This document shows, one piece after another, positions 2,367-63,519 of a stretch of DNA of 64,000 bases. The position numbers and the translations under genes were made by a program. The notes below the pieces were generated by a model that was not told the origin of the DNA, made no database searches, and saw only the letters and a list, made by a program, of their open reading frames with translations. The DNA is from an uncultured bacterium (lineage in GTDB: Bacteria > Patescibacteriota > Minisyncoccia > Moranbacterales > UBA2206). Position 1 is the stretch's first letter, and the number at the start of each line of letters is the position of its first letter. The stretch covers positions 1,188-65,187 of the forward strand of contig CAIZXS010000023.1 in assembly GCA_903937035.1 (NCBI GenBank), in the 5' to 3' direction.

Positions 2367-3938
2367 TTAGCGCTTAATCACACGCCCATTCCTGTTCCCG
2401 TTATACACAGAATCAGCAAGCACGATTTCTCCATTGACCATAACAAACTCAACTCCTTGGGAGTATTGATAGGGATTTTCAATTGTAGCTGAACTTTTAA
2501 GCTTATCCCGATCAAGAATCACTATATCAGCAAAATAACCTTTTTTCAAGACCCCTCTTTTTTTAATGCCAAACTTTAATGCTGGCGCTGATGTCATTTT
2601 GCAAATTGCCGATTCCCAGGTTAAAAGTTTCTCTTTTTTAACATATTTTTCCAATACCTTAACAAATGCTCCAAAATTACGCGGATGCACTCGCTCTCCT
2701 GTTTTGGCATGAAAGATGTCATATCCCGAGCCATTCGTTGCAATAAAAGATAGTGGGTGCGCGATAGCTTGTCTCACATTCTCTTCGCTCAGAACCTCCA
2801 CAGAAGTGACCACCATGCCCTCAGAGGCGACTAAGATGTCTATAATTACCTCCTCAACAGATCTTTCCTGACTTTGCGCAATTTCAGAAATACTATGTCG
2901 CGCCAAGGTTTTGTTGAGTGGAGAAATAGCAATCTCAATCTTAGAATAGTCGAAATCTGATTCGCGCATTTCATCGATTATTTTAGCTCGAATAACTGGA
3001 TCCTTCAATCGATGAAGCATTATTCTTTTCCCCCCTTCTGAAATCCAAACCGGCAAAAAAGAATACAAAACTGATCCCGTTGAAGTATAGGGATAGACAT
3101 CAAAGGTCACGTCAATTCCCTCTTCTTTTGCTTTGCCAATCAAATCCAACACCTCGCCCATCTTTGACCAATTCTTTTCCCCAATAACCTTCAAATGTGA
3201 AATTTGCAATCTTACGCCCGATTCCCTAGCAACACGAAGCGCCTCCTCAATCGCTTCAACAATATCTCCTTGCTCCGATCGGATATGTGTCGCATACACC
3301 CCTTTATATTTCTTTACAATTTTGGCTAGTGTCAAAAGCTCATCATAAGGAGCTAGTCTTGCATGGGAATATATTAACCCTGTCGACATCCCAAGCGCTC
3401 CCTCTTTCATAGCATTCTCTAGCGATTTCTTTAGGGCCTCAATCTCTTTTGGTAAAAGACTGCGCACCTCATCACCAATGACTCCTCGACGAAGCGTAGC
3501 GTGCCCGACTAACGTTGCAAAATTTAATGAGATCTTCTTTTCTTCAAGAACTGAAAATAATTCCTCAACTTTCAACCAACTAATATTGATTTTTTTAACA
3601 TCCACCCATTTTTGAATCGCATCAATCGTTGCCGGAGTTGCCAATGGCGCGAGTGATGTCCCGCAATTTCCACCAACAATCGTTGTAATGCCTTGATATA
3701 TCAAACTTTCCAAGTGAGGATTCAAAAAAATCCGCCAATATGTATCACTGTGGTTATTTACATCAATAAATCCAGGGCAAACCATCTTACCCTGAGCATC
3801 AATCTCAACACTCGCTCGCTCATCGCCCAATTCTCCAATTTTTCGAATCTCGTCCTCTTGAATGCCAATATCTGCCCGAAATGCCGCATTTCCAGTTCCA
3901 TCAATAATATTAGCATTTTTAATAATTATATCGTACAT
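2367..3938 (-). CDS. D-aminoacylase / N-acyl-D-amino-acid deacylase family amidohydrolase
   Basis: Motifs GFIDVNNHSD and GGNCGTSLAP match metal-dependent D-aminoacylases. It lies 7 nt upstream of the PP-loop::MurD gene on the same strand. Confidence 0.7.
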   Translation of the reverse strand: MYDIIIKNANIIDGTGNAAFRADIGIQEDEIRKIGELGDERASVEIDAQGKMVCPGFIDVNNHSDTYWRIFLNPHLESLIYQGITTIVGGNCGTSLAPLATPATIDAIQKWVDVKKINISWLKVEELFSVLEEKKISLNFATLVGHATLRRGVIGDEVRSLLPKEIEALKKSLENAMKEGALGMSTGLIYSHARLAPYDELLTLAKIVKKYKGVYATHIRSEQGDIVEAIEEALRVARESGVRLQISHLKVIGEKNWSKMGEVLDLIGKAKEEGIDVTFDVYPYTSTGSVLYSFLPVWISEGGKRIMLHRLKDPVIRAKIIDEMRESDFDYSKIEIAISPLNKTLARHSISEIAQSQERSVEEVIIDILVASEGMVVTSVEVLSEENVRQAIAHPLSFIATNGSGYDIFHAKTGERVHPRNFGAFVKVLEKYVKKEKLLTWESAICKMTSAPALKFGIKKRGVLKKGYFADIVILDRDKLKSSATIENPYQYSQGVEFVMVNGEIVLADSVYNGNRNGRVIKR

Positions 3939-3942
3939 TTTT

Positions 3943-4941
3943 TTATTTATTACTAATATATGCAGCCATTTCTACAAGCCGATTAGAATAGCCCCATTCA
4001 TTGTCATACCAACCGACAACCTTAACCAAATTGCCATTAGCCATCGTAAGTGGAAGGTCTACAATTGCGCTATGCGCATCTCCTTTAAAATCCATAGACA
4101 CTAATCCCTCATCAGTTACTGAGAGAATTCCCTTCATATCATTTTGTGCTGCATCACGAAAGGCATTGTTCAATTCATCTACCGTTGCATCTTTCTTTAA
4201 ATTACAAATAAAATCAACAATGGAAACAACTGGAGTTGGAACACGCAGAGAGATTCCATCCAGCTTACCCTCCAAATGTTTCATAACCTTGCCCACAGTT
4301 TTTGCTGCACCGGTTGTTGTTGGAATAATACTAAGAGCTGCTGCCCTTGCTCGTCGCAGATCTTTATGTGGCAAATCCAAAATGCGCTGATCATTTGTGT
4401 AGGAATGAGTAGTGGTCATAAAACCTTTCTCTAAGCCGAAATTATCATCTAAGATCTTAATTATCGGAGCGAGACAGTTGGTCGTACAAGAACCATTGGA
4501 AATAATCGCTTCGGACGGATCATACTCATTTTCATTAACCCCTAAAAGATAAATTGGAATATCATCTTTTGGTGGCGCACTAAGAATCACTTTCTTCGCG
4601 CCAGCCTCTAGGTGCTTGCTTGCTTTTTCTCGATTCTCAAAAACTCCAGTGCATTCAAGAACAATGTCAATTCCCAACTCTTTCCAAGGTAATTTTTCAG
4701 GGTCCTTCTCGGAAAAAAATTTGATCCTAGTTCCATCTATGATTAATTCTGAATTTTCCTCATCCACATTTACTTCATGAGCATAGCGACCGTAACTAGA
4801 GTCATATTTAAAAAGATGCGCAGCAGTCTTGAGATCAGTAAGATCATTGATCGCGACTACTTCCAAATCTTCTTTTTCAAAGGCGATTTTTAGACTTGGT
4901 CTACCAATTCGACCAAAACCATTGATTGCAATTTTTGTCAT
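3943..4941 (-). CDS. gap: Glyceraldehyde-3-phosphate dehydrogenase
   Basis: INGFGRIGR, SNGSCTTNCLAP, WYDNEWGYS. Start set at MTKIAING; the longer MLHVAYY extension in the ORF track is read through the upstream CATG-heptad element. Confidence 0.95.
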   Translation of the reverse strand: MTKIAINGFGRIGRPSLKIAFEKEDLEVVAINDLTDLKTAAHLFKYDSSYGRYAHEVNVDEENSELIIDGTRIKFFSEKDPEKLPWKELGIDIVLECTGVFENREKASKHLEAGAKKVILSAPPKDDIPIYLLGVNENEYDPSEAIISNGSCTTNCLAPIIKILDDNFGLEKGFMTTTHSYTNDQRILDLPHKDLRRARAAALSIIPTTTGAAKTVGKVMKHLEGKLDGISLRVPTPVVSIVDFICNLKKDATVDELNNAFRDAAQNDMKGILSVTDEGLVSMDFKGDAHSAIVDLPLTMANGNLVKVVGWYDNEWGYSNRLVEMAAYISNK

Positions 4942-5018
4942 GTAGTATGCAACATGTAACATGTAACAATTCTCCTTTTGAGCGTTGCTTCATATTTCAT
5001 GTTTTGTATTATGTAAAT
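4939..5018 (-). promoter_or_regulatory. Bipartite CATG-heptad element upstream of gap. The proximal part abuts the ATG (minus-strand reading TTGTTACATGTTACATGTTGCATACTACATG); a degenerate distal part reads CATGAAATATGAAG
   Basis: 7-nt periodic YTACATG repeats adjoining the start codon, as found at dfx, adk and rpmB. Confidence 0.5.
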
Positions 5019-5318: not shown

Positions 5319-5693
5319 CTAGCTGACCCAAAGACCATGAACATTGCAATAAGCCCTCGCTGCAAGGTGCTCTGCCTCCAAGAAAAACTCCACCTGAGGC
5401 TCTGATCCCGGCTCTAGATATTTGCGATATACCCGATGTTCCGTAACAACCTCAATCCATTCAATATAATGTTCACTCTCCATTGGATGAGTAATCTCTC
5501 CGACACGTACAATCACGCCAGTATCATTTCTTTCAATCGTTGGCTTATGTTTCTCCACTCCCTCGTCTTCTGTTTTGGCAAATTGCTGCTCCATCGGGGC
5601 CCCACAGCAAACCAACTCCCCCGCGCCCCCATGTGTCATTTCAACTATGTTCCCACAAATGTTACACTTGTAGATTTGATTTAGTTCAGTCAT
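5319..5693 (-). CDS. dfx: Desulfoferrodoxin (2Fe superoxide reductase)
   Basis: Desulforedoxin-like N-terminus YKCNICGNIVEMTHGGAGELVCCGAPM. SOR domain with EKHKPTIE, HPMESEHYIEWIE and AYCNVHGLW. Start set at MTELNQ. Confidence 0.9.
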   Translation of the reverse strand: MTELNQIYKCNICGNIVEMTHGGAGELVCCGAPMEQQFAKTEDEGVEKHKPTIERNDTGVIVRVGEITHPMESEHYIEWIEVVTEHRVYRKYLEPGSEPQVEFFLEAEHLAARAYCNVHGLWVS

Positions 5694-5824
5694 AGTTATG
5701 TAGCATGAAACATGTAGCATGTAACAATTGAATGCTTCAAGCTTCGTGCGTGTTAAATAATTTTTAATCTTGTCCATCTCCCCCTTGCTCTCTCTGTTTT
5801 ATGTTTCATGTTTCATGTTTCATG
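5691..5824 (-). promoter_or_regulatory. Bipartite CATG-heptad element upstream of dfx. The proximal part reads AATTGTTACATGCTACATGTTTCATGCTACATAACT+ATG; the distal part is (CATGAAA)x3, 67 nt further upstream
   Basis: Direct read of the sequence. The distal array is the reverse complement of a (TTTCATG)n array, so it is inverted relative to the proximal YTWCATG heptads. Confidence 0.55.
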
Positions 5825-5825
5825 A

Positions 5826-7085
5826 CTAATGCACCGCGCAAGAAATGCACGGATCATAGGCACGAATGAACGCGCGCAACTTTTTTTCTTTTTCCTTATC
5901 TTTTAATTTCAAGATTTGAGGAATATATGCGGCGATATCATCTTCCAGATTAGACAAGAACTGAGCGGTTGGAGTAATGATGTTCACGTTTTTAACATAA
6001 CCCTTGGCGTCAACATCGACGTGATAATAGAGTGTTCCGCGTGGCGCTTCCACTGCTGCCGAACCCTCACCTTCTTTAATGGTATATTCTTTTGTCACGA
6101 CTTCTTCCAAATCACTGCTTAACAGCTCCAACATAATTCTTCTTGATTCTTCAATCGAATGAATGACTTCTACCATCTGCGCTAGAATATTATGGAAAGG
6201 ATTATAATCGGGGAAGTTCCATCCCAGACTTTTCAGATATTCTGAGGCCTTCAATCTTAACTTAACTCTATTATTGTTTATTCGCGCAATCGCTCCTATC
6301 ATATAGCTCTTTCCATTGTGCTCCACTCTTTTAATTATCTCGTTCTGTTTTTGCAGTTCCAAAAAGTTAGCTTCAAATTTTTCCACTGGGATATGCAAAC
6401 CAAAATTGGAAATTATATCCCCATCATAAATCGCATATTCTCCTCTCTTGTCCAGTGAAACATATTCAGTCTCTCGCGAAAAATCTGGTATTTTGATGCC
6501 GCGAAAAAATTCCCCTAGCTCCAATGCTATTTGCAAAACATCCTCTGAATTTTTAAGTATTCCTTTTAATAATTCCCTGTCTGGAGCCTTCTTAAACCCA
6601 CCCACCTCATTGGTCAGCGGATGCACAACCCTCCCACCAACCACCCTCACTATCTCCATTCCGAATTCACGAAGTTTGATTGCTTTCTTCGCCTCTTCAG
6701 GGTATTTACTCACGAGCTCAATGTCATTATCCATATCCAAGAAATCAGCTAGAGACAGAAAAAAGAGATGCAGTGAATGAGAATGAATGAACTGCGCATA
6801 TTCCATAAGTGTTCGCAGCTTTTCCGTCTCATATGTTACAGTTACGCCCATGGCATTTTCTAGAGCCTTAATCGAAGTAAGATTGTGTACGACAGGACAA
6901 ATCCCACAAATACGTTGAGCAACAAGAGGCATGTCCTTATACTCCCGCCCAACGAGAACGCCTTCAATAAGACGAATTCCCTCTTGCACCTGCAACTTGG
7001 CCGATTTAACATCACCCTTTATCACGCTTGCCATAAAGCCAGCATGACCTTCCATTTTTGCGATATGATTTATTTTGATATTCAT
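5826..7085 (-). CDS. [NiFe] hydrogenase large (catalytic) subunit, cytoplasmic group 3 type
   Basis: N-terminal RICGICPVVH. The C-terminus has DPCISCAVH, and the protein ends at that His with no C-terminal extension. Confidence 0.9.
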   Translation of the reverse strand: MNIKINHIAKMEGHAGFMASVIKGDVKSAKLQVQEGIRLIEGVLVGREYKDMPLVAQRICGICPVVHNLTSIKALENAMGVTVTYETEKLRTLMEYAQFIHSHSLHLFFLSLADFLDMDNDIELVSKYPEEAKKAIKLREFGMEIVRVVGGRVVHPLTNEVGGFKKAPDRELLKGILKNSEDVLQIALELGEFFRGIKIPDFSRETEYVSLDKRGEYAIYDGDIISNFGLHIPVEKFEANFLELQKQNEIIKRVEHNGKSYMIGAIARINNNRVKLRLKASEYLKSLGWNFPDYNPFHNILAQMVEVIHSIEESRRIMLELLSSDLEEVVTKEYTIKEGEGSAAVEAPRGTLYYHVDVDAKGYVKNVNIITPTAQFLSNLEDDIAAYIPQILKLKDKEKEKKLRAFIRAYDPCISCAVH

Positions 7086-9976: not shown

Positions 9977-11314
9977 GTGCAACAAAAAAAATCCTCCATG
10001 CTATACTATTCTCATCATATGAACACCCACCCCTTCCCCCAAAAAACCAAGCAGACTATCCTCGCCCTCGGCGCCGAATCCGAAGGAAATTTCTGTTTTT
10101 TTGCACAAAACAAAATTTATTTTTCGGAGAATTTTGGTGATCTCTTGAAAGAAAAAAACTGGCAAAAATATCAAGCGGCGGTTTTGGAATTTTTGAAAAA
10201 AAATAAATTCAAACCGGACCTACTTCTCACCGACCTACATCCTCTCTATTTGACTTCGGTTTGGGGCAAAGCTCTAGGTAAAAAATACAAAGTTAAGCAT
10301 ATTCAAGTTCAACACCACCTAGCGCACCTTTTCTCAACTATCGGCGAAAAAATCATATTAGATACTAAATACCAGATACCAGATACCATTTACGGGATTG
10401 CTATGGATGGAACGGGCTATGGAACTGATGAAAAAATTTGGGGAGGAGAAGTGTTTAAAATCAAAAATCCCATGCCTACCGGCAGGCAGGAAAAATCAAA
10501 AATAAAAATTATCGAACGAATCGGCCATCTTGAAAATCAAGTCTTGATCGGTGGAGATTTAGCAATAAGAGAACCGGCGCGAATGTTGATTAGCATTTTG
10601 GATAAGGTATTGTTACCCCCTCCTTACCAAGGAGAGGGGTTGGGGGTGAGGTTAAAGAGCAATACACAAAGAAAAAATACTACTTACCGCTTCGTAAAAA
10701 ACTACTACACCAAAAACGAATTTGAGTTAATTTACGCCCAGCTCCAGCAAAATTTCAACTGCCTCGAAACTTCCAGCACCAGCCGAGTCCTAGATGCTGT
10801 TTCGCTACTTTTAGGTTTTTGTGAAAATGAGAGAAAATACAAGCACGAACCGATCGCTCCGCTAGAAACCAACTCCACAAGACCCTATGTGGATTTAAAA
10901 CCAAAAATTATACTTTCACAGGGCAAGCGAGTTTTAAACACGACTTTTTTGTTTGAATATTTAATTAAAAATTTGCATAAAGATAAGAAGCGCCTAGCTG
11001 CAACTGCACAACTCTATGTCGCTCGGGGATTATATGAACTCATAAAAAACAGTTGTCATCCTGAGCGAAGTCGAAGCCTGCCTGCCGGTAGGCAGGGATC
11101 TACCTGCAAATACCACCAGCGATATTCTACAGAAGATTCTTCGACTCCGCTGCGCTGCGCTCAGAATGACATTTTTATAGCCGGTGGCATCGCCAATAAC
11201 AAAATTATTTCTGTATATTTAATTTCCCAAGGTGCTTATGCAAGCAAAGAGATCCCCCGCGGCGACGCCGGGCTTTCTTTTGGACAGATTATTTGCTACT
11301 TACTTTCAAAGTAA
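9977..11314 (+). CDS. hypF: HypF-like carbamoyltransferase, Kae1/TsaD-like C-terminal domain only. It lacks the acylphosphatase, Zn-finger and YrdC domains and carries in-frame insertions
   Basis: VQHHLAHLFS (HypF HHxAH motif), ILALGAESEGNFCF, FIAGGIANN. Internal palindromic 16-mer at 10475-10490 and a MITE-like insert at 11055-11170. Confidence 0.6.
   Translation: MQQKKSSMLYYSHHMNTHPFPQKTKQTILALGAESEGNFCFFAQNKIYFSENFGDLLKEKNWQKYQAAVLEFLKKNKFKPDLLLTDLHPLYLTSVWGKALGKKYKVKHIQVQHHLAHLFSTIGEKIILDTKYQIPDTIYGIAMDGTGYGTDEKIWGGEVFKIKNPMPTGRQEKSKIKIIERIGHLENQVLIGGDLAIREPARMLISILDKVLLPPPYQGEGLGVRLKSNTQRKNTTYRFVKNYYTKNEFELIYAQLQQNFNCLETSSTSRVLDAVSLLLGFCENERKYKHEPIAPLETNSTRPYVDLKPKIILSQGKRVLNTTFLFEYLIKNLHKDKKRLAATAQLYVARGLYELIKNSCHPERSRSLPAGRQGSTCKYHQRYSTEDSSTPLRCAQNDIFIAGGIANNKIISVYLISQGAYASKEIPRGDAGLSFGQIICYLLSK
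10475..10490. repeat. Palindromic 16-mer CCTACCGGCAGGCAGG; reverse complement of the 16-mer at 11077-11092
   Basis: Exact inverted match ~600 nt apart inside the hypF-like ORF. A related hairpin, CTGCCGACAGGCAG, lies at 55633-55646. Confidence 0.6.
11055..11170. mobile_element. MITE-like element with terminal inverted repeats GTCATCCTGAGCGAAGTCGAAG / CTTCGACTCCGC..CTCAGAATGAC, inserted in frame within the hypF-like CDS
   Basis: The ends match the intergenic copy at 52587-52714 and the centre differs. It contains the hairpin CCTGCCTGCCGGTAGGCAGG. The host ORF stays open, with encoded insert ...HPERSRSLPAGRQGSTCKYHQRYSTEDSSTPLRCAQNDIF... Confidence 0.65.
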
Positions 11315-17270: not shown

Positions 17271-18053
17271 TTATCCATTAATTATCCTAGCTATTTTCAA
17301 AAACTCCCTCGGCGCCAACGATTCCCTCCCAATCAGAGCACCCTCCATTCCACTTTCAATGCACGCCTGTCCTACAGTCTTCACACTGACCGATCCACCA
17401 TAAATTATACGCATTTTCTGAATCATATTTTGAGAAAAATTCCGTGACAGAATTTTTTGAATCAAAACTTTTGCCTCCATAATCTCATTGCTTGTCGGGA
17501 TACTGTCTGATCCAACTGACCAAATCGGTTCATAGGCTACGACTATTTTTTCCAACTTTCCTGGAGCCACGCCAGCGAAAGCTTCTTTAATTTGCCTGGT
17601 TATTACATGCATTGTCTCGCCAGATTGCCGCTCTTCCTTCGTTTCACCCACGCATATTATTGGACTAAGACCATTTTTAAGACTTGCTAGCACTTTTTGA
17701 TTGATTGATTGATCATTTTCAAAAAAATACTTACGTCTTTCACTATGACCGATAATCACATATTCTGAGCCGAAATTTTTCAGCATTACTGGTGAAATTT
17801 CTCCCGTATACGAGCCCTTTTCTTCCCAAAAACAGTTTTGCCCGCCTAGCGCAACTTTTTTTCCTAGCACCTTTCCGAAACTTTCCAAGTGGATTGCCGG
17901 CGGACAAAGTACAATTTCAGCATTATTTATTTTTTTTCCTGCTAATTCTTTTTTAACCGCACCGAGATACGTCTCTCGCTCAGCTTGAGATAAGATATTC
18001 ATTTTTAAGTTACCGATAATTATTTTTTTCATACTTGTTTTTTCTTTAACCAT
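17271..18053 (-). CDS. tpiA: Triosephosphate isomerase
   Basis: GHSERR, AYEPIWSVGS, YGGSV. The real start is probably the internal MKKIII. Confidence 0.95.
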   Translation of the reverse strand: MVKEKTSMKKIIIGNLKMNILSQAERETYLGAVKKELAGKKINNAEIVLCPPAIHLESFGKVLGKKVALGGQNCFWEEKGSYTGEISPVMLKNFGSEYVIIGHSERRKYFFENDQSINQKVLASLKNGLSPIICVGETKEERQSGETMHVITRQIKEAFAGVAPGKLEKIVVAYEPIWSVGSDSIPTSNEIMEAKVLIQKILSRNFSQNMIQKMRIIYGGSVSVKTVGQACIESGMEGALIGRESLAPREFLKIARIING

Positions 18054-27221: not shown

Positions 27222-27969
27222 AAATCTCAACACCATTTTTTGTGACCACAATAGTATCTTCAAAATGCGCACTAAGCCTTCCGTCTTTCGTCGCATATGT
27301 CCAACCATCCCCCAATACCTTTATATAATGAGTGCCCGCATTAATCATCGGCTCAAGCGCTAGCGTCATTCCTTCCTGCAGAATTATTTCTCGCATCGCA
27401 GAGGAATAGTTCGGAATTTGCGGATCTTCATGCAATTCCCTGCCTACTCCATGCCCAACTAATTCGCGCACCACGGAAAAACCCTGCAATTTAGCGTGCT
27501 TCTCAACTGCCTTCCCGTAATCACTCAATTTTGATCCAGCTTTGATTGTCCCCAATCCTTCATCAAGGCATTCTCGAGTTGTATCTAAAATTCTCTGCGC
27601 TTCAGTCGAAATCCTCCCAACGGAATATGTACGAGCCATATCAGTAATCATGCCTTTATACGTCATCCCGATATCTATTTTTACTAAATCACCATCATGA
27701 ACAATCCTACTTTTCTTGGGAATACCATGCACGATCTCATTATTTATAGAGGTGCAAATAGCGGCTGGAAAGGCATTACCCGGAGCTCCATAGCCCTCAA
27801 AAATTGGAAATCCTCCATTATCAAAAACAAGCTTTCTTGCTAGCTTGTTAATCTCGAAAGTATTTTGCCCGGGAATAATTATACCGCTTAATTGCTCCAT
27901 AATCTGAGCTAACAGTTTTCCGCCTTCGCGCATCGCATCTATTTCTTTTTTTGATTTGATGATAATCAT
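27208..27969 (-). CDS. map: Methionine aminopeptidase type I
   Basis: Conserved metal-ligand context (D..D..H..E..E) and overall match to map. Confidence 0.95.
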   Translation of the reverse strand: MIIIKSKKEIDAMREGGKLLAQIMEQLSGIIIPGQNTFEINKLARKLVFDNGGFPIFEGYGAPGNAFPAAICTSINNEIVHGIPKKSRIVHDGDLVKIDIGMTYKGMITDMARTYSVGRISTEAQRILDTTRECLDEGLGTIKAGSKLSDYGKAVEKHAKLQGFSVVRELVGHGVGRELHEDPQIPNYSSAMREIILQEGMTLALEPMINAGTHYIKVLGDGWTYATKDGRLSAHFEDTIVVTKNGVEILTRV

Positions 27970-28601
27970 AGTATTTTTAAAATATCCTCAAAAACTTCAT
28001 TTGGACTTTTAGATCCATCAATTCTGGAAACCAATTTCTTATTTTCAAAATATTCAATCACTGGAATCGTTTCCTCCATAAAAATACTCAATCTTTTTTC
28101 AATACCTTCCTTCGTATCATCCACTCTTTGGACCAACTTCCCGGAGCATTTTAAACAAATAAGATTTTGGTCATCCTCTTTCAAGACTACCGCTTCTTTG
28201 CATTTTTCGCAAGAAAACCGCTTTCCAATTCTTTTCAGCGACTCCTCTTTAGAAATATCCACAAAAATAACTCGATCAATCTTCCGGCCAAATTCCCCCA
28301 GTGCTTGCTCAAAATATCCTGCTTGATCAATATTTCTTGGAACTCCATCGAAAACGACTCCCTGTTCCCGTCCGAGATCATCAAGGCGAATATGCAAAAT
28401 TTCTCGCAATATTCGACTTGGCACAAGCGTTTTTGTCACATTCTGAATCTCGTAAACCTCACGCCCCAAAGGAGTGTCTAATTTAGCAACTTGACGCAAA
28501 GCGCAGCCAGTATCAAAATGATCCAAGCCAAATTTTTCTGCCAAAAGTTTTGCCTGTGTGCCTTTGCCTGAGCCTTGGGGACCCAAAATCACTAAATTCA
28601 T
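27966..28601 (-). CDS. adk: Adenylate kinase (zinc-lid type)
   Basis: GPQGSGKGTQ; lid CEKC...CLKC. Start set at MNLVILGP; the ORF-track extension MRRSLFCQNCYMVHAICY is read through the upstream element. Confidence 0.95.
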   Translation of the reverse strand: MNLVILGPQGSGKGTQAKLLAEKFGLDHFDTGCALRQVAKLDTPLGREVYEIQNVTKTLVPSRILREILHIRLDDLGREQGVVFDGVPRNIDQAGYFEQALGEFGRKIDRVIFVDISKEESLKRIGKRFSCEKCKEAVVLKEDDQNLICLKCSGKLVQRVDDTKEGIEKRLSIFMEETIPVIEYFENKKLVSRIDGSKSPNEVFEDILKIL

Positions 28602-28704
28602 ATAACATATAGCATGAACCATGTAACAATTCTGGCAAAACAAACTTCTCCGCATTAAGATTTAAGAGAAAGTTGTTTCATGTTTCATGTTTCATGCTGC
28701 ATGA
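28599..28704 (-). promoter_or_regulatory. Bipartite CATG-heptad element upstream of adk, immediately after the secY stop. Distal part CATGCAGCATGAAACATGAAACATGAAA; 43-nt spacer; proximal part AATTGTTACATGGTTCATGCTATATGTTAT+ATG
   Basis: Direct read of the sequence; same architecture as the dfx and rpmB copies. Confidence 0.55.
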
Positions 28705-31947: not shown

Positions 31948-32352
31948 TTACCACACCTCACAAATATACTCCCCGCCTAATCCTGTCTTTTTCGCATCAT
32001 GATCAGTCATCACGCCCTTGGAAGTAGAAATAAGCGCAACGCCATAATTATTTTTAACGCTTCTAACATCCTTACTTTTAACATAAATTCTTTGCCCTTC
32101 CTTGCTGATTCTTCTGATTCCCTTGATTGCTGGTGTTTTATTTGTATTAGAAATGATATAATATTTCAAAGTTATTTTTATCACATCAAAATCACCCTGC
32201 TTTTCTTTCGCAACGGCTTCGACGAAACCTTCTTTTTCCAAAATCTTAGCTAAAGCCATTTTTAACTTAGAAGCACTAATGGTGACAGTTTTATGTTCTG
32301 CCATCTGAGCATTCCTAATTTTGGTTAACATTTCTGAGATTGGGTCTAACAT
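31948..32352 (-). CDS. rpsH: Ribosomal protein uS8
   Basis: MLDPISEMLTKIRNA. Confidence 0.95.
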   Translation of the reverse strand: MLDPISEMLTKIRNAQMAEHKTVTISASKLKMALAKILEKEGFVEAVAKEKQGDFDVIKITLKYYIISNTNKTPAIKGIRRISKEGQRIYVKSKDVRSVKNNYGVALISTSKGVMTDHDAKKTGLGGEYICEVW

Positions 32353-32425
32353 ACTCTTTAAAATTCAAAATTTAATATCAAATCAAACTATACAATTACT
32401 CTTAATTTATTCTAATGAAAAATCT

Positions 32426-36439: not shown

Positions 36440-37273
36440 TTATTTCCGCTTAACTCTTCTTTTGATTATATACTTATTGCTATATTTTTTCCTCTTTCTT
36501 GTCTTCTTTCCAAGTGCTGGCTTTCCCCAAGGAGTTTTAGGATGTTTAAGCCCGATTCCTTGGCGTCCTTCGCCTCCTCCGTGTGGATGATCAACTGGAT
36601 TCATCGCCGATCCACGAACAGCGGGGCGTTTATTAAGCCAGCGACTCTTACCAGCTTTTCCAAGATTTATAGAATTACTTTCGAAATTGCTAGCTTGTCC
36701 AATTGTTGCATAGCATTCATTGCTAACGAGTCGGATTTCCCCAGAAGGCAATTTGATCTGAGCTGTTTTATCATCCACAGCCGTAAGACTAGCTGAGCTT
36801 CCAGCGCTTCGAACAATTTGTCCACCATGCCCTGGAAACAGCTCCAAATTACAGATAGTCGTTCCAACTGGAATATTTTTTACCTTAGCACGATTCCCCG
36901 GCTTTACTGGAGCATTTTCCGCAGACATCACCTCTTGTCCCTCTCGCATTCCTTCTGTCGCTAAGATATAACGCTTTTCCCCATCAGCATAATTCACAAG
37001 AGCAATAAAGGCTTTTCTGTTGGGGTCTTTTTCGATTGCAGCTACTCGTCCAGGTATACCAAGCTTGTCTTGTAAAAAGTCTACAATACGATATCGCTGT
37101 TTATTTCCACCTCCCTGATGACGAACTGAAATTTTTCCATGTGAACGCCCAGCTAATTTACCTTGTTTTGCTAAAAGGGCTTTTTCCGGCTTTTTCTTTG
37201 AAATATAATCAACCTTAACAATCGACATATTTCGACGTCCAGCGGTATTTTTTTTGTAAATCTTAATTGCCAT
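36440..37273 (-). CDS. rplB: Ribosomal protein uL2
   Basis: Sequence and position. Confidence 0.95.
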   Translation of the reverse strand: MAIKIYKKNTAGRRNMSIVKVDYISKKKPEKALLAKQGKLAGRSHGKISVRHQGGGNKQRYRIVDFLQDKLGIPGRVAAIEKDPNRKAFIALVNYADGEKRYILATEGMREGQEVMSAENAPVKPGNRAKVKNIPVGTTICNLELFPGHGGQIVRSAGSSASLTAVDDKTAQIKLPSGEIRLVSNECYATIGQASNFESNSINLGKAGKSRWLNKRPAVRGSAMNPVDHPHGGGEGRQGIGLKHPKTPWGKPALGKKTRKRKKYSNKYIIKRRVKRK

Positions 37274-38260: not shown

Positions 38261-38815
38261 TTAGATTGCTTTAATTTCCACTATTCCGCCTGGAATACCC
38301 GGAACTGCTCCTTTTATACCTAATATATTCTTTTCCACATCAATAAAAACCACCTTCAAGTTTTTTGTTGTTATTCGCTCTCCACCCATTCTCCCTGCCA
38401 TTCGCTTTCCTTTCACCACGTGCTCTGGGAAACCAGAACCGATTGATCCAGGAGCGCGCAAGTCATGCTTATGCCCATGGGAAGCGCATCCGCCCTTAAA
38501 GCCATATCTTTTGACTACACCCTGAAATCCTTTTGCCTTACTTGTTCCACTGACAATCACCTTCTCGTTAATTTCAAAAATAGAAACATCTACAACATCA
38601 TCTTTTTTAAGTTCACTTCCTTCAACGCGGAATTCTTTCTTCTTTGATTTATTTTTTGTCTTAGCAATCAACATCTGGACAGCACTATAGCCATCTTTCA
38701 CCTTCTCCTTGATCAAAGAAACTTTTGAACCACACTCCAAAAGAGTCACGTTCAATGCGCCTTTTTCATCATAAATCGTTGTCATTCCAATTTTTTTTCC
38801 TAAAATGAATTTCAT
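38261..38815 (-). CDS. rplC: Ribosomal protein uL3
   Basis: Sequence and position. Confidence 0.95.
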   Translation of the reverse strand: MKFILGKKIGMTTIYDEKGALNVTLLECGSKVSLIKEKVKDGYSAVQMLIAKTKNKSKKKEFRVEGSELKKDDVVDVSIFEINEKVIVSGTSKAKGFQGVVKRYGFKGGCASHGHKHDLRAPGSIGSGFPEHVVKGKRMAGRMGGERITTKNLKVVFIDVEKNILGIKGAVPGIPGGIVEIKAI

Positions 38816-50870: not shown

Positions 50871-51290
50871 TTATTTCTTATCTTTCTCCACCTTAGCGCC
50901 ATATTTACTGCGACCTTGTTTGCGATTCGCCACTCCGGCGCTATCCAAAACTCCTCGCACGATATGATAACGCACACCAGGAAGATCTTTTACGCGACCT
51001 CCACGAAGCATTACGATGGAATGCTCCTGCAGGTTATGTCCGATTCCTGGGATATAAGCAGTTACTTCCATTCCATTTGTAAGACGAACTCTAGCAATCT
51101 TACGTAAAGCCGAGTTTGGTTTTTTAGGTGTAGTAGTACTAACCTTCAAACATACTCCGCGCTTAAATGAGCTATTTGTAAGAACTGGCTTATTTTTCAA
51201 AGTATTAAAAACATGCTTAAAGGCAGGTGTTTTTGATTTACTCTTCAATGATGTTCTGGACTTTCGCTTTAATTGATTGATTGTTGGCAT
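50871..51290 (-). CDS. rpsL: Ribosomal protein uS12
   Basis: PTINQL...PNSALRK...GVRYHIVRG. Confidence 0.95.
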
Positions 51291-51508: not shown

Positions 51509-52198
51509 TCAAATCGCCACCCGCAAAAAGGCGTTAATTGCCGTGCCCAGAAAAACGCGCAAAGGAGAGGAAAAAAAGAATATAAAAAACAAAAGCATAA
51601 TAAAGCCAAACTGCTCAAGCATCGCCTGAGTTTCAATTTTAATCGGAAAGACGGAAAACAAGATCTTGGATCCGTCAAGCGGTGGGATAGGGATCAAATT
51701 AAAAAAAGCCAAAAAAACGTTAATAATAACCACGATAATCAAGAGTTCATAAAATATCGCCCCGACTGATCCAGCAATAACGCCTGAAACTGTCGACCAT
51801 TCATTAAAGTGATTAATAATATCTTTCTTCAAATGCAATGGCAACGCGATAAATCTCGCTCCTAGCGCGGCCAAAAAGGCTACTGTTAAATTTATCCCGG
51901 GTCCCGCCATAGCAACAAGCGCTGGTCCCCATTTCTGATTTTTCAAATTATAGGGATTATAAGGCACTGGTTTTGCCCAGCCAAAAGCAAAGCCAAAAGA
52001 AAGATACATAAAAAGCGGAGCCAAAAATGAGCCAACCAAATCAAGATGACTAAAGGGATTAGCAGTAAGGCGTCCGGCATATTTAGCAGTATTATCCCCA
52101 AGCCAAAGCGCCATCAGCCCATGAAAAACTTCATGGATGATTACGGAGTAAAGCAAAATGGCAACATAAAAAACGATTAACACCACATCATTAGACAT
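51509..52198 (-). CDS. M50 family (site-2 protease-like) zinc metalloprotease
   Basis: HEVFHGL (HExxH) and NLIPIPPLDGSKIL in a multi-TM protein. Confidence 0.85.
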   Translation of the reverse strand: MSNDVVLIVFYVAILLYSVIIHEVFHGLMALWLGDNTAKYAGRLTANPFSHLDLVGSFLAPLFMYLSFGFAFGWAKPVPYNPYNLKNQKWGPALVAMAGPGINLTVAFLAALGARFIALPLHLKKDIINHFNEWSTVSGVIAGSVGAIFYELLIIVVIINVFLAFFNLIPIPPLDGSKILFSVFPIKIETQAMLEQFGFIMLLFFIFFFSSPLRVFLGTAINAFLRVAI

Positions 52199-52260
52199 AC
52201 ATTTTCTTGCTAAAATTATATTCCTATGCTACCTTATATCTTGTAATAAATCAACCAATT

Positions 52261-52354
52261 CATGAAACATGTAACATGAAACACGCAACAAGAGAATCAC
52301 TTCTCTTCGCTGGATACCGCGTGCTACATGCTATATGCTTCATGCTACATGTCT
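52261..52354 (+). promoter_or_regulatory. Bipartite CATG-heptad element upstream of rpmB. Distal part CATGAAACATGTAACATGAAACACG; 36-nt spacer; proximal part TGCTACATGCTATATGCTTCATGCTACATGTCT+ATG
   Basis: Plus-strand copy of the element family; it causes the artefactual [10 protein letters not shown]-terminal extension. Confidence 0.55.
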
Positions 52355-52528
52355 ATGAGTCGAGTTTGTGAAGTTTGCGGACGCGGTCCAGGAACAGGGC
52401 ACACCGTCAGCCATTCTAATGTAAAAACCTTGCGAAAATTTCAAATCAATTTGCAAAGCAAGAAAATTGACGGCGCAAAAACTAGAGTTTGCACCCGTTG
52501 TATCAAAACTGCTAACAAAGAAAAGTAA
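52355..52528 (+). CDS. rpmB: Ribosomal protein bL28 (zinc-binding form)
   Basis: [22 protein letters not shown]...RVCTRC. Confidence 0.85.
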
Positions 52529-52586
52529 TTTTCTTTTCGTGAAAACTAAAAAATCCTCCTTGCGAAAGCTTGGAGGATTTTTTTGT

Positions 52587-55671: not shown

Positions 55672-58089
55672 CTACATCTCCCATTTGTCCCGCTTTTCTT
55701 GATCACTCACATCATCATTATAGACCGTTCCAACTTCTTCGGGAAGCCCATAGATTTCTCTTGGCTTAGCACCATCAGACGGACCAACGACACCCTTCTC
55801 TTCTAGGATATCCAATAGTCTCGCTGCCCGCGCATAACCCACACGCAGGCGTCTCTGCAAGAATGATGCGGAAGCCTTCTTGGACTGCAAGATTTCTTTT
55901 TTTGCAGCTTCATATAAATCATCATTGTTCTCATCACTGAAACCGTTAAAATTATCCAGCTCAGTTGCTGTGGATATGGATTTTCCCGCCGTGATTTCTT
56001 CCGCATCATCTTCGGTTATATCCTTGCTTTCGTTTTCTTCTTTAATAAAATTCACAATCTCTTTTACCTCTTTTTCCGTCACAAAGACACCTTGAATTCT
56101 TTGTGGTTTGGGAGAATTTGCACTCAGATAAAGAGAGTCGCCATTGCCCAGTAGTTTTTCTGCTCCAGCCATATCCAAAATGGTACGCGAATCAATTTGC
56201 GTTGCCACTTGAAAAGAAATTCTGGTTGTAATATTGGCTTTAATAAGTCCGGTAATCACTTCCACTGAGGGACGCTGAGTTGAAACAATCAAATGAATTC
56301 CCACCGCACGCGCCATCTGAGCAATTCGCACAATCGCACCCTCCACTTCTTTACCATGGCTACCCATCAGATCAGCAAGTTCATCCACGACAATCACGAT
56401 GTAAGGAATGTTGCTATAATCCTCCTCGCTCACCTCGCCAGTTTCTGCGTCAACCAATTTTCTTTTCTCACCTCTTTTGAGTTTCTCCTTGAATGAAATA
56501 ATATCTCGCACGCCCGCTTCTTGAAATAGCTTGTACCGCTTCTCCATTTCACTGACCGCCCATTTCAAAGTATTAACAACCTTAGCATTCTCCACGATTA
56601 CTGGCGTAAGCAGATGTGCGATACCATTGTAGAGTGACAGTTCGACTCTTTTCGGATCAACCATGATAAATTTCAGATCTTCGGGGGAGTTTTGATATAA
56701 AAGCATTGTGATAATCGAATTGACACAAACCGATTTCCCCGTTCCCGTTGCACCAGCAACCATAAGGTGTGGCATCTTATCCAAGCTACCAAAAATATAA
56801 TTGCCACTCACATCTTCACCCAGCGCAATGCTCAGATTAGACTTTCTATTTTTGAAGTCCTTGCTTTCCAAAATTGAACGCAAGCGCACAAAAGAAGAAC
56901 TCTTATTTGGAACCTCAATACCTATGAGAGATTTTCCTGGAATTGGCGCCTCAATTCGAATTGGAGCAGCCAGGGCCAAAGAAAGATCGTTTTGCAGAGC
57001 CAATATTTTAGCAATCTTAACTCCGACTGCTGGACGAAAACTATATTGCGTCACAGAGGGACCAGTTTTAATTTCGCCTCTTTCAACTTCAATTCCAAAA
57101 TTACGCAAAGCATCCTCGATCAGTTGTGCATTCAAATCCACATCGCCTCCCTTTGCTACGCCAGTCGCTTTTTCCAAAATATCCACTGGTGGAAATTTCC
57201 ATTTCAACGCTCTCGCCTTTTTCTTTGTCGAATGGCTAGAATTTTCATCTGACAAGGTTTTTTTAGAAAAAAGCAAATCTCCTTCCTCTTCATCATCAGA
57301 TAGCTCGGATGAGATAAATTGATCTCGCCCTTCGACAAATTTTATCTTCGCGATATTCTCTTTTGCCAACATTTCAATTTCCTTCTGCTCATCACGCACC
57401 AGCTCTAGCTCACTCTGTCCAATTCCTTCCGTGTCGTTCTGCATTTCTTCTACGTCATTCTGTGTTTCAAATTCTGTGTTGTTCTGCATTTCTTCTACAC
57501 CTTCTTCTGTGCTCTTTCTCTTGAAGCGCTCAATAAAACTAACGATAGAAAATTCAAAAGCCGTAATCACACCCAACAAAAGAAGTGCCATAATAACCAC
57601 TAAACTGCCAGCATTGCCCAAATATTTTATAGAAAAATAGGCCACAGCATAACCAGCATAGCCACCACCCCTCCCGGCCTCAGCGACTGCCTGCATCTTA
57701 GAAGGATCAAAAAACCAGTGAAAGAGTCCGGTTATACTAACAAAAACAACAAAAAGACCAGCTAATTTTGTAACATAAAAAATTGTTTCCTTTCTAAAAA
57801 AGAGCACGACACCTGCCAAAACCAAAAAGAGCGGAAAAATTAACTTCGCCCAACCGATCGCTTGTCCAATCAATCTATTTAAAAATTCACCGACTACACC
57901 AGCATACCCAAGGAAACCCAGGGCCGTCAAAACAGCCAAAGTAAACAATATTACTCCAGCCACATTTCTTCTGACGTCCGAGGAAAGAGAAAAGTCGAAT
58001 TTGCTTTTTGGCTCATCGCCAGTCTCATTTTCTTTTATTTTTTTCCCATTTGAACTATTTTCTTTTTGCCCGTTTTTTCTTCGTCCCAT
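55672..58089 (-). CDS. ftsK: DNA translocase FtsK/SpoIIIE
   Basis: N-terminal TM helices; motor domain with AGATGTGKS Walker A; C-terminal gamma wHTH. Confidence 0.95.
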   Translation of the reverse strand: MGRRKNGQKENSSNGKKIKENETGDEPKSKFDFSLSSDVRRNVAGVILFTLAVLTALGFLGYAGVVGEFLNRLIGQAIGWAKLIFPLFLVLAGVVLFFRKETIFYVTKLAGLFVVFVSITGLFHWFFDPSKMQAVAEAGRGGGYAGYAVAYFSIKYLGNAGSLVVIMALLLLGVITAFEFSIVSFIERFKRKSTEEGVEEMQNNTEFETQNDVEEMQNDTEGIGQSELELVRDEQKEIEMLAKENIAKIKFVEGRDQFISSELSDDEEEGDLLFSKKTLSDENSSHSTKKKARALKWKFPPVDILEKATGVAKGGDVDLNAQLIEDALRNFGIEVERGEIKTGPSVTQYSFRPAVGVKIAKILALQNDLSLALAAPIRIEAPIPGKSLIGIEVPNKSSSFVRLRSILESKDFKNRKSNLSIALGEDVSGNYIFGSLDKMPHLMVAGATGTGKSVCVNSIITMLLYQNSPEDLKFIMVDPKRVELSLYNGIAHLLTPVIVENAKVVNTLKWAVSEMEKRYKLFQEAGVRDIISFKEKLKRGEKRKLVDAETGEVSEEDYSNIPYIVIVVDELADLMGSHGKEVEGAIVRIAQMARAVGIHLIVSTQRPSVEVITGLIKANITTRISFQVATQIDSRTILDMAGAEKLLGNGDSLYLSANSPKPQRIQGVFVTEKEVKEIVNFIKEENESKDITEDDAEEITAGKSISTATELDNFNGFSDENNDDLYEAAKKEILQSKKASASFLQRRLRVGYARAARLLDILEEKGVVGPSDGAKPREIYGLPEEVGTVYNDDVSDQEKRDKWEM

Positions 58090-61695: not shown

Positions 61696-63519
61696 CTACC
61701 CATTCCTCTCCAAAGTCTCTTTTTCTTGCTCCAGCGGGAGCTCAAGAATGAATTTCGTGCCCATGCCGGCGCCGGGTGATTCAATCCAGACTCGGCCGCC
61801 ATTGGCAGTTGTGATCATTTTCACCACATAAAGCCCAAGGCCCGTACCACCCGTATTGAGTCGCGTAATATCTTTACCACGGGAAAATTTTGCAAACAAA
61901 TAGGGAATTTCTTCCGCTGGGATGCCAATACCAGTATCAGACACAGTCACGCGCAGATGTGGCGCAGAAAGACAGTTCACTTGATTCTTTTTGCACAATT
62001 CAACAGAAAGCGTTACTCCACCCTTTATGGTATATTTGAGCGCATTATCAACTAAGTTAGAAATCACTTCGCGAATTTTTGCTCCATCGATTGTCAATTC
62101 CGGCAAAATTTCAGCCGGGACACGATAATCCAGATAGAGATCTTTATCCTTAGCCTTAAGCGCCAAATTGTTGATCACATCTTGACAGAGCTCTCCAATT
62201 TGTTGCTTTTTAAATTCAAATTTCATACTGCCCGATTCGATGCGCGACACACTTAAGAGATCTTCCACGAAAGCAATTTGCTGGTTATTGGCGTTATAGA
62301 TATTTTCCACCGCGCTTCTTTGCTCGGCGTTCAACTCTCCATATGAACCTTCCAAAAGCATTGACGAATAACCCTTAATTGGCGTTGGTGGTGTGCGCAG
62401 TTGGTGCGAGGCCATGGAAACAAACTCTGTTTTGGCATTATCCAATTTTTTAAGCTTATCGTTAGCCACCGCAAGACTATCAGAAATTTTCTGCAATTGA
62501 TCCTTTCTTTCGCTAATTTCCTTGTTAGCCACCTTGAGTTTTTTGTTACGATTTTCAATTTCCTTGTTTCGTTTTTCAATTTCTGTGTTAGCAATTTCCA
62601 GTTCCTCCCTCTGTTCGATCTCTTTTTTAACCGAACGTACCAATATCCAACCAAAAATCACCACGATTACCAAGGTGATCGCAGTGAGAACCCTATTGGT
62701 GTTATTTTGAATGAAAGCAAATTGAGAGCCAATGATGATAATAAGTAAAACAACAAGTGCCTGAGCACCAATTAGTTTAACCTCAAAAGCTTTGAACTTT
62801 ACGATTAAATAGGCAATCATACCCATAAAAAAAACCATCCCGAAGAGTCCATATTGGTCAAGCGAATAATCAGTCGTTGCGCCATTTTCAATTAAATAGC
62901 TTGCTAAAAATCCAGTCACAAAAAATGTCAGCAAAAAAAACTCGATTCCAAAAGCCATTATTATTAGTTGTTTTTTGAATGAATTTTCAACTTTCCGGTA
63001 TCTGTTAATTGCTAAAATCAAAGCCCACACAAACATTAAAAGTCCAATTCCATAGTAATAATTCGTGAAATAATGTCCTTCCAAGGCGGAACAGCGAGGA
63101 ACATTAAAGCCTGTGACATTATGGCTAGTTGAGGTTAGAAAAATAACTGGAAGTAAAAGTAACATAAAAATTATCTTTTGAGGGAGACCCACATCCTTCT
63201 TATCAATAAAAACGTATAAAAAATACACTGAGAGAATATAAACAAGCGCGTAGGCTATTCCAAGTAATGACCAAGCTAGCATTATATTGCCACTGTCGTT
63301 GCTGGTCCAGGTTATCAGATTTAAAAATGCCCAGAACGAAAAAGTGATTGAAATCGACAGTAAAATCTTATTTAGCAAAGAATGTCTATTATTATAATAA
63401 ACAAAAAAACCAATCAACAGTGAAATGATTATTGCCGGTAAATGGGAATAATAAAGCAACGCCGGAACGTCAGAGGAAAATATTAAGTATTGCGGATCAG
63501 GGTAAGTTGGACAAATCAT
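61696..63519 (-). CDS. Sensor histidine kinase with an N-terminal 7TM sensor domain, coiled coil, HisKA and HATPase_c
   Basis: SHQLRTP H-box, DNALKYT, DTGIGI, GGTGLGL. Confidence 0.9.
   Translation of the reverse strand: MICPTYPDPQYLIFSSDVPALLYYSHLPAIIISLLIGFFVYYNNRHSLLNKILLSISITFSFWAFLNLITWTSNDSGNIMLAWSLLGIAYALVYILSVYFLYVFIDKKDVGLPQKIIFMLLLLPVIFLTSTSHNVTGFNVPRCSALEGHYFTNYYYGIGLLMFVWALILAINRYRKVENSFKKQLIIMAFGIEFFLLTFFVTGFLASYLIENGATTDYSLDQYGLFGMVFFMGMIAYLIVKFKAFEVKLIGAQALVVLLIIIIGSQFAFIQNNTNRVLTAITLVIVVIFGWILVRSVKKEIEQREELEIANTEIEKRNKEIENRNKKLKVANKEISERKDQLQKISDSLAVANDKLKKLDNAKTEFVSMASHQLRTPPTPIKGYSSMLLEGSYGELNAEQRSAVENIYNANNQQIAFVEDLLSVSRIESGSMKFEFKKQQIGELCQDVINNLALKAKDKDLYLDYRVPAEILPELTIDGAKIREVISNLVDNALKYTIKGGVTLSVELCKKNQVNCLSAPHLRVTVSDTGIGIPAEEIPYLFAKFSRGKDITRLNTGGTGLGLYVVKMITTANGGRVWIESPGAGMGTKFILELPLEQEKETLERNG

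Follow-up and report, generated by a model that had tools for sequence, protein, structure and literature searches.

The transcribed spacers of bacteria harbor stems of several kinds, such as REP/BIME, ERIC, and Correia palindromes, hairpins that sequester a ribosome binding site (RBS), and RNase III sites between cistrons. Short tandemly repeated repetitive (STRR) sequences with the units CCCCAAT, TTGGTCA, and CAACAGT were reportedly described by Mazel et al. in 1990 from heterocystous cyanobacteria. Direct repeats of the heptamer TAACTGA are found in marine Beggiatoaceae, certain Cyanobacteria, and a small number of Bacteroidetes (MacGregor 2015, PMC4679880). A Beggiatoa genome contains 169 direct TAACTGA sets and a single indirect set; with 2 to 6 copies each, the repeats mostly lie just upstream of start codons, including those of ribosomal-protein operons, where they cover the expected RBS and are rarely accompanied by a Shine-Dalgarno (SD) sequence, and a role in translational regulation was proposed for them, with S1, Csp, and CsrA as possible binders (PMC4679880). 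Contiguous TTTTGAA/TTCAAAA heptamers near or overlapping the starts of Nostoc PCC 7120 genes affect reporter output and are suspected of acting in transcription or translation (bioRxiv 10.1101/2022.06.06.494920), and the cold-shock domain protein CspB has a heptanucleotide binding site with the consensus GTCTTTG/T (PMC1904285). As summarized in PMC4679880, Mrazek (2007) found heptanucleotide units to be the commonest among the long simple-sequence repeats (SSRs, 5- to 11-nt units) of prokaryotes and proposed slippage as their source. Start-adjacent heptamer repeats have been noted for decades in a few phyla without a mechanism; here they become a defined, testable object. We analyzed a 64,000-nt stretch of DNA (the window; contig CAIZXS010000023.1 of assembly GCA_903937035.1, positions 1,188 to 65,187) from a groundwater bacterium of the candidate phyla radiation (CPR), in which dfx, gap, adk, and rpmB are each preceded by an element built of inverted CATG heptads. 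The definition of these elements rests on the reduced, SD-poor CPR genomes that contain them, on a start codon placed inside a repeat unit, on a complementary arm abutting the stop codon, and on a swap of heptad family at the level of strains. The host is placed in the Moranbacteria (Parcubacteria) because homologues of its Adk and GAPDH are 77 to 99% identical in metagenome-assembled genomes (MAGs) so named.

The elements are stop-to-start spacers composed of two inverted heptanucleotide simple-sequence arrays, with the start codon embedded. An earlier note, made by reading the sequence, had located them correctly at the four genes, and the bipartite inverted architecture that it described was confirmed on the coding strands: an A-rich (CATGAAA)n arm at the 5′ side, a variable loop, and a pyrimidine-rich (YTWCATG)n arm at the 3′ side. 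Its strand assignment of two minus and one plus has to be replaced by three minus and one plus, and its distal array of three to four CATGAAA units holds for dfx, adk, and rpmB, which have four heptad units each, while the gap arm has two, the second of them degenerate. The loops, of 67 (dfx), 16 (gap), 44 (adk), and 35 nt (rpmB), are unrelated in sequence between elements. An identical 12-mer, AATTGTTACATG, opens the proximal arm in three of the four (dfx, gap, and adk). All proximal arms end 0 to 3 nt from the ATG; at gap and adk, the last heptad supplies the ATG with which the gene starts, and at dfx and rpmB the start codon stands 3 nt after the last heptad. Each element takes up its entire spacer, the A-rich arm beginning 0 to 20 nt past the upstream stop codon.

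The dfx element (minus strand) separates the gene of the NiFe-hydrogenase large subunit from dfx. Its distal arm, three CATGAAA units plus CATAAAA (5824-5797), was found by pattern search, Tandem Repeats Finder (TRF), and inverted-repeat search; it begins 1 nt past the hydrogenase stop codon (TAG 5828-5826), and TRF assigned it period 7, 4.3 copies, and a 95% match. Its loop (5730-5796), which differs in sequence from those of the other elements, holds GGGGGAG and the ATG from which a spurious 152-aa open reading frame (ORF) starts. The proximal arm, AATTG TTACATG CTACATG TTTCATG CTACATA (5729-5697), is followed by ACT and the true dfx start, ATG 5693-5691, which is backed by the gene call MTELNQ in the relative L129 (see below). 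Between a hypA-like gene and gap, also on the minus strand, the short distal arm CATGAAA TATGAAG (5001-4988) lies 20 nt past the hypA-like stop codon (TAA 5023-5021); the 16-nt loop, containing AAAAGGAG, and the proximal arm together span 4939-4987 and were detected by pattern search, TRF, and folding. The gap proximal arm reads AATTG TTACATG TTACATG TTGCATA CTACATG (4971-4939), and its last ATG (4941-4939) is the GAPDH start.

The third minus-strand element lies between secY and adk, within the ribosomal-protein operon. Its distal arm, CATGCAG plus three CATGAAA units (28703-28676; pattern search, TRF, inverted repeat, and fold), begins 1 nt past the secY stop codon (TAA 28707-28705); the 44-nt loop (28632-28675) has a small hairpin of its own (CUUUCUC...GAGAAG), and the proximal arm AATTG TTACATG GTTCATG CTATATG TTATATG (28631-28599) ends in the adk start (ATG 28601-28599). 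Other gaps in this operon measure 3 to 34 nt, plus a single 73-nt gap before the S8 gene, and those neighboring the secY-adk spacer measure 10 to 30 nt. The plus-strand element forms the leader of rpmB, a monocistronic gene with a terminator-like hairpin at its end (52545-52586). Since the gene upstream of rpmB is divergent, the distal arm CATGAAA CATGTAA CATGAAA CACGCAA (52261-52288) sits in the 5′ leader; it is followed by a loop of 35 nt (52289-52323), which contains a small hairpin of its own (AAGAGAA...UUCUCUU), and by the proximal arm CTACATG CTATATG CTTCATG CTACATG (52324-52351), after which come TCT and ATG 52355-52357.

The feature is real and nonrandom. In the window, CATGAAACATGAAA with at most one mismatch has 7 matches versus 0.12 expected from dinucleotide shuffles, TACATGYTWCATG has 13 versus 0.28, and CATGN3CATGN3CAT has 32 versus 1.22. 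Among the 173 CATG sites of the window, 13 pairs are spaced by 7 nt, 12 of them inside the four loci, and any other spacing is represented by at most 4 pairs, save the multiples 14 and 21. The elements are neither a coding feature nor random intergenic DNA. TRF called all eight arms with period 7 and 3.3 to 4.3 copies, and every arm is a tandem direct 7-nt repeat of at least 2 copies. The two dfx arms (5693-5726 and 5795-5828) constitute the longest inverted repeat of the window, with 34 nt and 79% complementarity. Searches and shuffles together exclude a chance origin of the four elements, and since at least 10 independent assemblies share the same sequence, they are no assembly artifact.

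A hotspot of restriction-modification or methylation was considered and rejected: outside the arrays, CATG is observed 151 times versus 148.6 expected (ratio of 1.02), and other heptad families do not contain CATG. Phase variation was likewise discarded, the copy number being identical across at least 10 contigs of the population; no copy-number variation, as would mark a phase-variable repeat, was seen among L122 to L125 and L131 to L136, in which arrays and spacing are the same. By inspection, an integron attC site or an invertible promoter does not fit housekeeping genes without core sites and with spacers that are too short. No tRNA was found in the window, nor any match to Rfam 15 at the gathering threshold; scans of the four element regions by E value gave no overlap with E < 0.4 or more than 19 bits, as against gathering scores of 70 to 100 bits.

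The arrays are open in the reading frames of their genes, and gene callers extend ORFs through them, a practical matter for annotation; assemblies may also break at arrays. In the population's public annotation, the overextended calls are Dfx (5319-5777), Adk (27966-28655), and GAPDH (3943-4962), with 152 aa versus a true 124, 229 versus 211, and 339 versus 332, respectively. Extensions such as MLHVSCYIT, which had been suspected of being spurious, are indeed artifacts of ORF calling, given that orthologues start at a canonical Met (MTKIAING for most GAPDHs, MN(L/I)V, and MTELNQ). It is hardly credible that the arrays are translated as a conserved N-terminal tag (M-L/V-H/Y-V/A-x-C/Y-Y). In each of the four elements, the first array ATG stands 21 or 27 nt upstream of the gene and shares its reading frame, and in gap only it has AAGGAG 9 nt before it. 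However, the frame simply follows from 3 × 7 = 21, ATGs occur in the other two frames as well, no SD-like motif precedes the first array ATG of dfx, adk, and rpmB, and the “peptide” disappears where the cassette has been swapped in a relative. The coding tag was rejected on the last of these points and on the canonical Met of most orthologues.

Sigma-70-like −35/−10 sites were sought inside the elements; the coding strand has none, and the counts are at the level of shuffles. The sole candidate promoter of rpmB (52192-52219) lies upstream of the distal arm, and the other three elements are flanked on both sides by codirectional genes. Because internal promoters are not above chance and the rpmB candidate is upstream, the elements should be transcribed as part of the mRNAs of the downstream genes. 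An internal promoter producing a leaderless mRNA was therefore discarded, as there is no above-chance sigma-70-like site and the −10 candidates, inspected by eye, are without the key bases. No AGGAGG-type SD was found at −5 to −15 of the true starts of the heptad genes, and TAAAGAG, the usual start motif of this genome, is missing near their ATG; as in TAACTGA-type repeats, the heptads thus occupy spacers without a canonical SD. At about 60 gene starts of the window (e.g., 31948-32352, 36440-37273, 38261-38815, and 50871-51290), a canonical SD is nearly absent, and well-defined ribosomal-protein starts are preceded by a TAAAGAG/TAAAGA-like motif or by plain A/T-rich DNA. Two A/T-rich heptad tracts stand before gene starts as well: A/T-only (ATTTTTT)x4 at 63518-63548, directly before a gene starting at 63519, and AATTTTG AATTTTA AAGAGT-ATG before rpsH (32353-32380), which is kept in the relative L003.

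The closest relatives retain the site while changing the heptads. L129 (GCA_037132035.1) has a GAPDH 99% identical to that of the window and hydrogenase and dfx coding flanks of ~100% identity, yet AACAGYG/CACTGTT heptads have taken the place of its hydrogenase-dfx spacer (L129:3132-3262), the exchange running exactly from the stop codon to the start codon. The distal arm is AACAGCT AACAGTG ATCAGAA ACCAGCG AACAGTA, the proximal arm is TTGTTCA CTGTTTC TTGCTCA CTGTCTA TTGTTT-ATG, and a like hairpin is predicted, with AUG paired with CAU at the stem base. Comparison of the window with L129 at dfx shows a predicted fold and a position that are kept while the sequence is swapped. At gap, L129 retains CATG heptads that differ from those of the window by a few substitutions, and two of these shift a G·U wobble from one helix segment to the other; L130 (GAPDH 88% identical) has TTCACTG heptads before the same gene. 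The last five codons of the L129 hydrogenase gene contain 4 synonymous changes after 60 nt identical to the window, an indication that the end of this coding sequence is part of the exchanged tract or has co-evolved with the stem.

The secY-adk spacer is long (100 to 240 nt) in eight of eight genomes examined, most of which have heptad arrays there. A metagenome scan with Adk returned 3 loci. The unit is CATG in the window and L116, AATTTCT in L001, L127, and L128, AAATTTG or AATTTYN in L002 and L126, and TACGAAT in L003. The closest of these relatives is L126, whose Adk is 94% identical to that of the window at the amino acid level, the others of the closest relatives having 77 to 80%; secY and adk of L126 are ~93% identical to those of the window, but the two spacers are nonhomologous exactly from stop codon to start codon. 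In L116 the proximal arm is (TTTCATG)x4, and its final ATG is the adk start. The comparison of these spacers shows the CATG heptad to be one of several interchangeable heptad families in Moranbacteria. Conservation upstream of orthologues, as the earlier note had expected it, gives a mixed picture, being absent in the closest relatives and present in more distant Moranbacteria (adk of L116, rpmB of L009, and gap of L129) and before the Paceibacterota gap of L112.

The earlier note had also implied a sequence-specific operator with its regulon, that is, iterated DNA or RNA sites through which one factor coregulates dfx, gap, adk, and rpmB. The L129 heptad swap at dfx, the different heptads of the closest adk relatives, and the predominance in this clade of tandem heptads with many different sequences do not bear this out, and we consider such a regulator quite unlikely. 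In its favor are the identical AATTGTTACATG of three of the four elements, the dominance of one heptad family at several loci of a genome (CATG in the window and TACGAAT in L003), and a 7-nt period that matches the site of a cold-shock domain (PMC1904285). On the other side, the near-identical strain L129 keeps CATG at gap while using other heptads at dfx, the genes bearing elements differ between genomes, a 7-bp period places successive sites on different faces of B-DNA, and curated RNA families provide no match. As far as genome comparison goes, a single sequence-specific regulon is contradicted, since near-identical strains have swapped heptad families and both the genes and the units are diverse. 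To our knowledge, the AATTGTTACATG... heptads, compared by eye and with no matrix scan run, are unlike Rex, Fur, and PerR boxes. A motif search revealed no cold-shock gene in the window.

Cassette-like exchange of spacers also raises the question of a mobile or selfish palindrome of the MITE, REPIN, or ERIC kind that inserts between genes together with its own initiation region. A candidate occurs in L003: at least 9 intercistronic gaps are filled there by an imperfect palindrome of ~115 nt, which has arms of TACGAAT/ATTCGTA and is nearly identical in all of them, including the loop; the TACGAAT family is present at 10 or more L003 loci. The palindrome (L003:821-7300 and 17528-17668; L001:2905-3020 and 3476-3588; L002:2710-2841) is insertion polymorphic among L001, L002, and L003, with related copies in other L001 and L002 gaps and none in the window, whose sites are empty of it. 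Its layout is TAG-(G)TCTTTACTAATTACGAATT...loop...AATTAGTAAAGAGAA-N3-5-ATG, with the 3′ end consisting of an SD-like AAAGAG, buried in the stem, followed by N3-5 and ATG; its 5′ end, GUCUUUA, agrees with the published CspB consensus GTCTTTG/T at 6 of 7 positions. For the window elements, however, mobility is very unlikely: their loops (16 to 67 nt) are unrelated and only the arms are in common, no target-site duplication was seen, the elements have no linked transposase in the window, and heptad-periodic arms are not a trait of known MITEs or REPINs. The L003-type element does not interrupt the ancestral spacer but stands in its place, and on account of this replacement, the unrelated window loops, and the missing duplications, the window copies do not resemble a classical MITE or REPIN.

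All four elements are predicted to fold as long imperfect hairpins, distal arm against proximal arm, at −27.2, −30.0, −30.9, and −19.6 kcal/mol; the z-scores of −2.5, −2.5, −3.4, and −4.0 agree with the idea, voiced before, of a leader or intercistronic hairpin. The arms are imperfect by rule, AAA standing opposite YUA so that an A·A or A·C mismatch recurs periodically, and minimum free energy (MFE) structures slip, the register of the repeats being ambiguous. In the predicted dfx and rpmB folds, the start codon is base paired to the CAU that comes first in the distal arm, and in those of dfx and adk, the upstream stop codon is within the stem base. The geometry of an RBS-sequestering hairpin, with the start in the stem and the 5′ arm near the upstream stop codon, is thus predicted for dfx and adk; gap is arranged otherwise, and rpmB has no upstream ORF to which a stop-to-start coupling geometry could apply. 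Orthologous or analogous elements of relatives are predicted to fold likewise.

CATG arrays are not confined to Moranbacteria. Scanning one genome per species for CATGAAACATGAAACATG yielded at least 118 loci; among the matches listed are 12 Moranbacteria loci, representatives of Saccharibacteria, Azam-, Nomura-, Roizman-, Falkow-, and Staskawiczbacteria and of Paceibacterota, many Bacteroidota, and some cyanobacteria and Tepidisphaeraceae. Among the CPR arrays listed, a long ORF starts at the array or within 25 nt after it in 17 of 30 cases in the TTTCATG orientation and in 7 of 30 in the other, so that the arrays are intergenic, near starts, and of a preferred orientation. The full bipartite plan, (CATRWAA)n-CA...loop...TTG-(TTTCATG)n-ATG, is found in Saccharibacteria (L031), Azambacteria (L025, twice), Falkowbacteria (L101), and, after a hydrogenase large-subunit gene, the Patescibacteria MAG L072. 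Whenever the downstream gene of a bipartite CPR element is identifiable, the A-rich arm forms the 5′ side and the U-rich arm the 3′ side. Recognizable downstream genes include adk (L116), rpmB (L009), rpsT (L004 and L023), tatD (L092), and holA (L004); the adk, rpmB, gap, rpsT, and holA genes of more distant Moranbacteria are among those that the CATG architecture precedes. At gap, L129 has the CATG architecture at the orthologous site, (TTTCATG)x5 of the Paceibacterota locus L112 ends in the start of MTRVAINGFGRIG, and GAPDH orthologues called from MLYVTCYM or MFRVSCFM indicate more CATG arrays before this gene. The genes preceded by heptad elements vary by genome, ribosomal-protein genes, FBA, holA, tatD, and rpsT being among them.

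Some arrays of other genomes depart from this pattern. The Bacteroidota MAG UBA1952 has at least 15 loci with CATGAAA arrays (e.g., L006, L016, L052, L082, L084, and L109), and in Bacteroidota (TTTCATG)n often starts 0 to 7 nt past the stop codon that ends a long ORF; among the Bacteroidota matches listed, partner arms lie downstream in 11 of 57 and upstream in 5 of 57, a polarity opposite to that in CPR. At least 12 CATGTYY units are arrayed on a Saccharibacteria contig (L074:2031 onward), and in Proteus terrae the 18-mer occurs five times with 21-nt spacing (L030:1439-1540); the contexts of these long arrays of the same unit are unrelated. Tandem repeats also lie within genes of the window, namely, apparently coding (AGATACC)x4 heptads (10360-10388) in the long plus-strand ORF 9977-11314 and in-frame 21- and 45-nt repeats (57410-57498 and 62543-62590) in two long minus-strand ORFs. 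In AT-rich Moranbacteria, spacers of different genomes repeatedly contain GC-rich palindromes, GCCTGCCTGCCGGYAGGCAGG and CTCTTCTCCCTTCGGGAGAGG... (L001:9950-9990, L003:9775-9800, and L075:2500-2560), that look like a second, REP-like repeat family.

Taken together, the favored if still tentative reading is that the element is an SD-independent initiation region gated by a hairpin. The U-rich 3′ arm would be the landing region of the ribosome and would donate the AUG, while the complementary 5′ arm would fold back, occlude the start codon, and set it beside the upstream stop codon, so that translation of the downstream gene would require the hairpin to open. These roles are assigned to the two arms because the element spans stop to start, can form a hairpin, embeds the start codon, has a fixed arm polarity, keeps its site despite swaps, and belongs to an SD-poor genome. 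Opening could come from a ribosome terminating upstream, which would couple translation across the 75- to 135-nt spacers of dfx, adk, and gap, from RNase III cleavage of the long imperfect stem, or from a single-strand RNA chaperone, for instance in the case of the rpmB leader, where no ORF lies upstream. A protein that binds seven nucleotides, for example through a cold-shock domain, would suit the 7-nt period, and this may serve as a lead only.

Several observations weigh against a gated initiation region. The true AUG of gap is unpaired in its predicted hairpin, the arm of which begins 20 nt after the upstream stop codon, and exposure of the AUGs that lie upstream and out of frame in the 3′ arm would be wasteful. 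Neither rpmB nor rpsT has a codirectional upstream ORF, and coupling therefore cannot be the general mechanism. Some relatives do without the element at the same sites, one having just 33- to 35-nt gaps at both. Of 29 CPR arrays among the matches listed, 8 have a strong complement within 150 nt on the upstream side and 2 on the downstream side, so that about a quarter to a third have an inverted partner, which, to judge from these matches, is frequent but not obligatory. Moreover, 13 of 25 elements fold better (by MFE) in the sense than in the antisense strand, which amounts to no overall strand preference, and among the 12 elements of the CATG family the antisense strand gives the better fold for 9, since the sense mismatches are A·C and not G·U. 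Strong selection on a sense RNA helix would lead one to expect otherwise; as a test on modeled folds, the strand comparison neither proves nor excludes a role of the RNA. Finally, we infer all the functional steps of the model.

A nonadaptive origin is the main rival because of the absence of a sense bias, the many arrays without a partner arm, the lack of an upstream ORF at rpmB and rpsT, and the relatives without an element at the same site. On this account, which is possible albeit doubtful, heptads born by slippage would have acquired inverted partners by quasi-palindrome template switching and would be tolerated in the few spacers that a compact genome offers; they would be associated with starts since ATG heptads can expand from the start context (TTTC-ATG / C-ATG-AAA) without destroying the start. 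Period 7 does dominate with many unrelated units: a survey of 227 kb of Moranbacteria DNA gave 110 short tandem arrays, of which 64 have this period, a count inflated somewhat by 12 loci that were chosen for a CATG array. Turnover is rapid, with whole-spacer replacement between near-identical strains; one CATGGAA/CATGAAA array of a Moranbacteria gene (L060:2594-2623) is apparently in frame in a coding region (...KDFFKSWNMKHETWNNDEKEKY...); and a heptamer excess elsewhere was attributed to polymerase slippage (Mrazek 2007, as summarized in PMC4679880). Nevertheless, the same heptad and polarity recur before the same genes across CPR phyla, the orientation relative to the downstream gene is biased, and the secY-adk spacer is long in every relative despite compact genomes. 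Repeats that slip freely should vary in copy number, but no such polymorphism was seen in at least 10 contigs of the population, and both arms are replaced together with the predicted fold kept.

The gated, SD-independent initiation region can be extended to a bolder proposal, which is unlikely as a whole: a hitherto undescribed class of modular initiation cassettes across CPR, in which the U-rich heptad arm with its AUG would be read by a protein with a 7-nt footprint (e.g., a cold-shock chaperone or S1), the complementary arm would act as the gate, and whole cassettes would be exchanged from stop to start. If true, it would provide a testable mechanism for the long-unexplained heptamer repeats of Beggiatoaceae and cyanobacteria.

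The literature yielded nothing on such repeats in CPR and nothing containing the CATG array sequences; the opinion that the motif is without precedent nevertheless has to be given up, because heptamer direct repeats upstream of starts are known in Beggiatoaceae, Cyanobacteria, and Bacteroidetes (PMC4679880; bioRxiv 10.1101/2022.06.06.494920). Like the TAACTGA repeats, the CATG arrays consist of tandem 7-nt units, are intergenic, start proximal, and SD poor, have one main orientation, and are patchy across phyla (PMC4679880). Since their units are CATGAAA and YTWCATG, and not TAACTGA, they are of the same kind without being of the same family. Unlike the TAACTGA repeats (PMC4679880), they occur in CPR, have a CATGAAA/TTTCATG heptamer with a palindromic CATG core that holds the start, form inverted pairs that give a stop-to-start hairpin, and belong to several heptad families that replace each other between strains. 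The SSRs of Mrazek (2007) resemble them in that heptamers are the most abundant, and differ, as far as the summary in PMC4679880 goes, in being genome-wide statistics rather than start-embedded inverted hairpins. REP/BIME, ERIC, and Correia palindromes, RBS-sequestering hairpins, and RNase III sites between cistrons likewise involve long imperfect stems near the stop codon that could occlude the next initiation region or be processed, but their arms are not built of heptads and their sequences are conserved within a family. With cyanobacterial STRR sequences and the Nostoc heptamers, the elements have in common contiguous noncoding heptamers near promoters or starts and several families per genome; the sequences and the phylum are different, and the descriptions of those repeats include neither a bipartite stop-to-start hairpin nor cassette replacement. 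No unit is an STRR unit, the AACAGTG arrays of L129 differing from CAACAGT arrays by one base per unit. The elements thus add a new variant to the start-codon heptamer repeats known from other phyla, and they are distinguished by a palindromic CATG core containing the start, by an inverted partner that produces a stop-to-start hairpin, and by the exchange of heptad families between near-identical strains.

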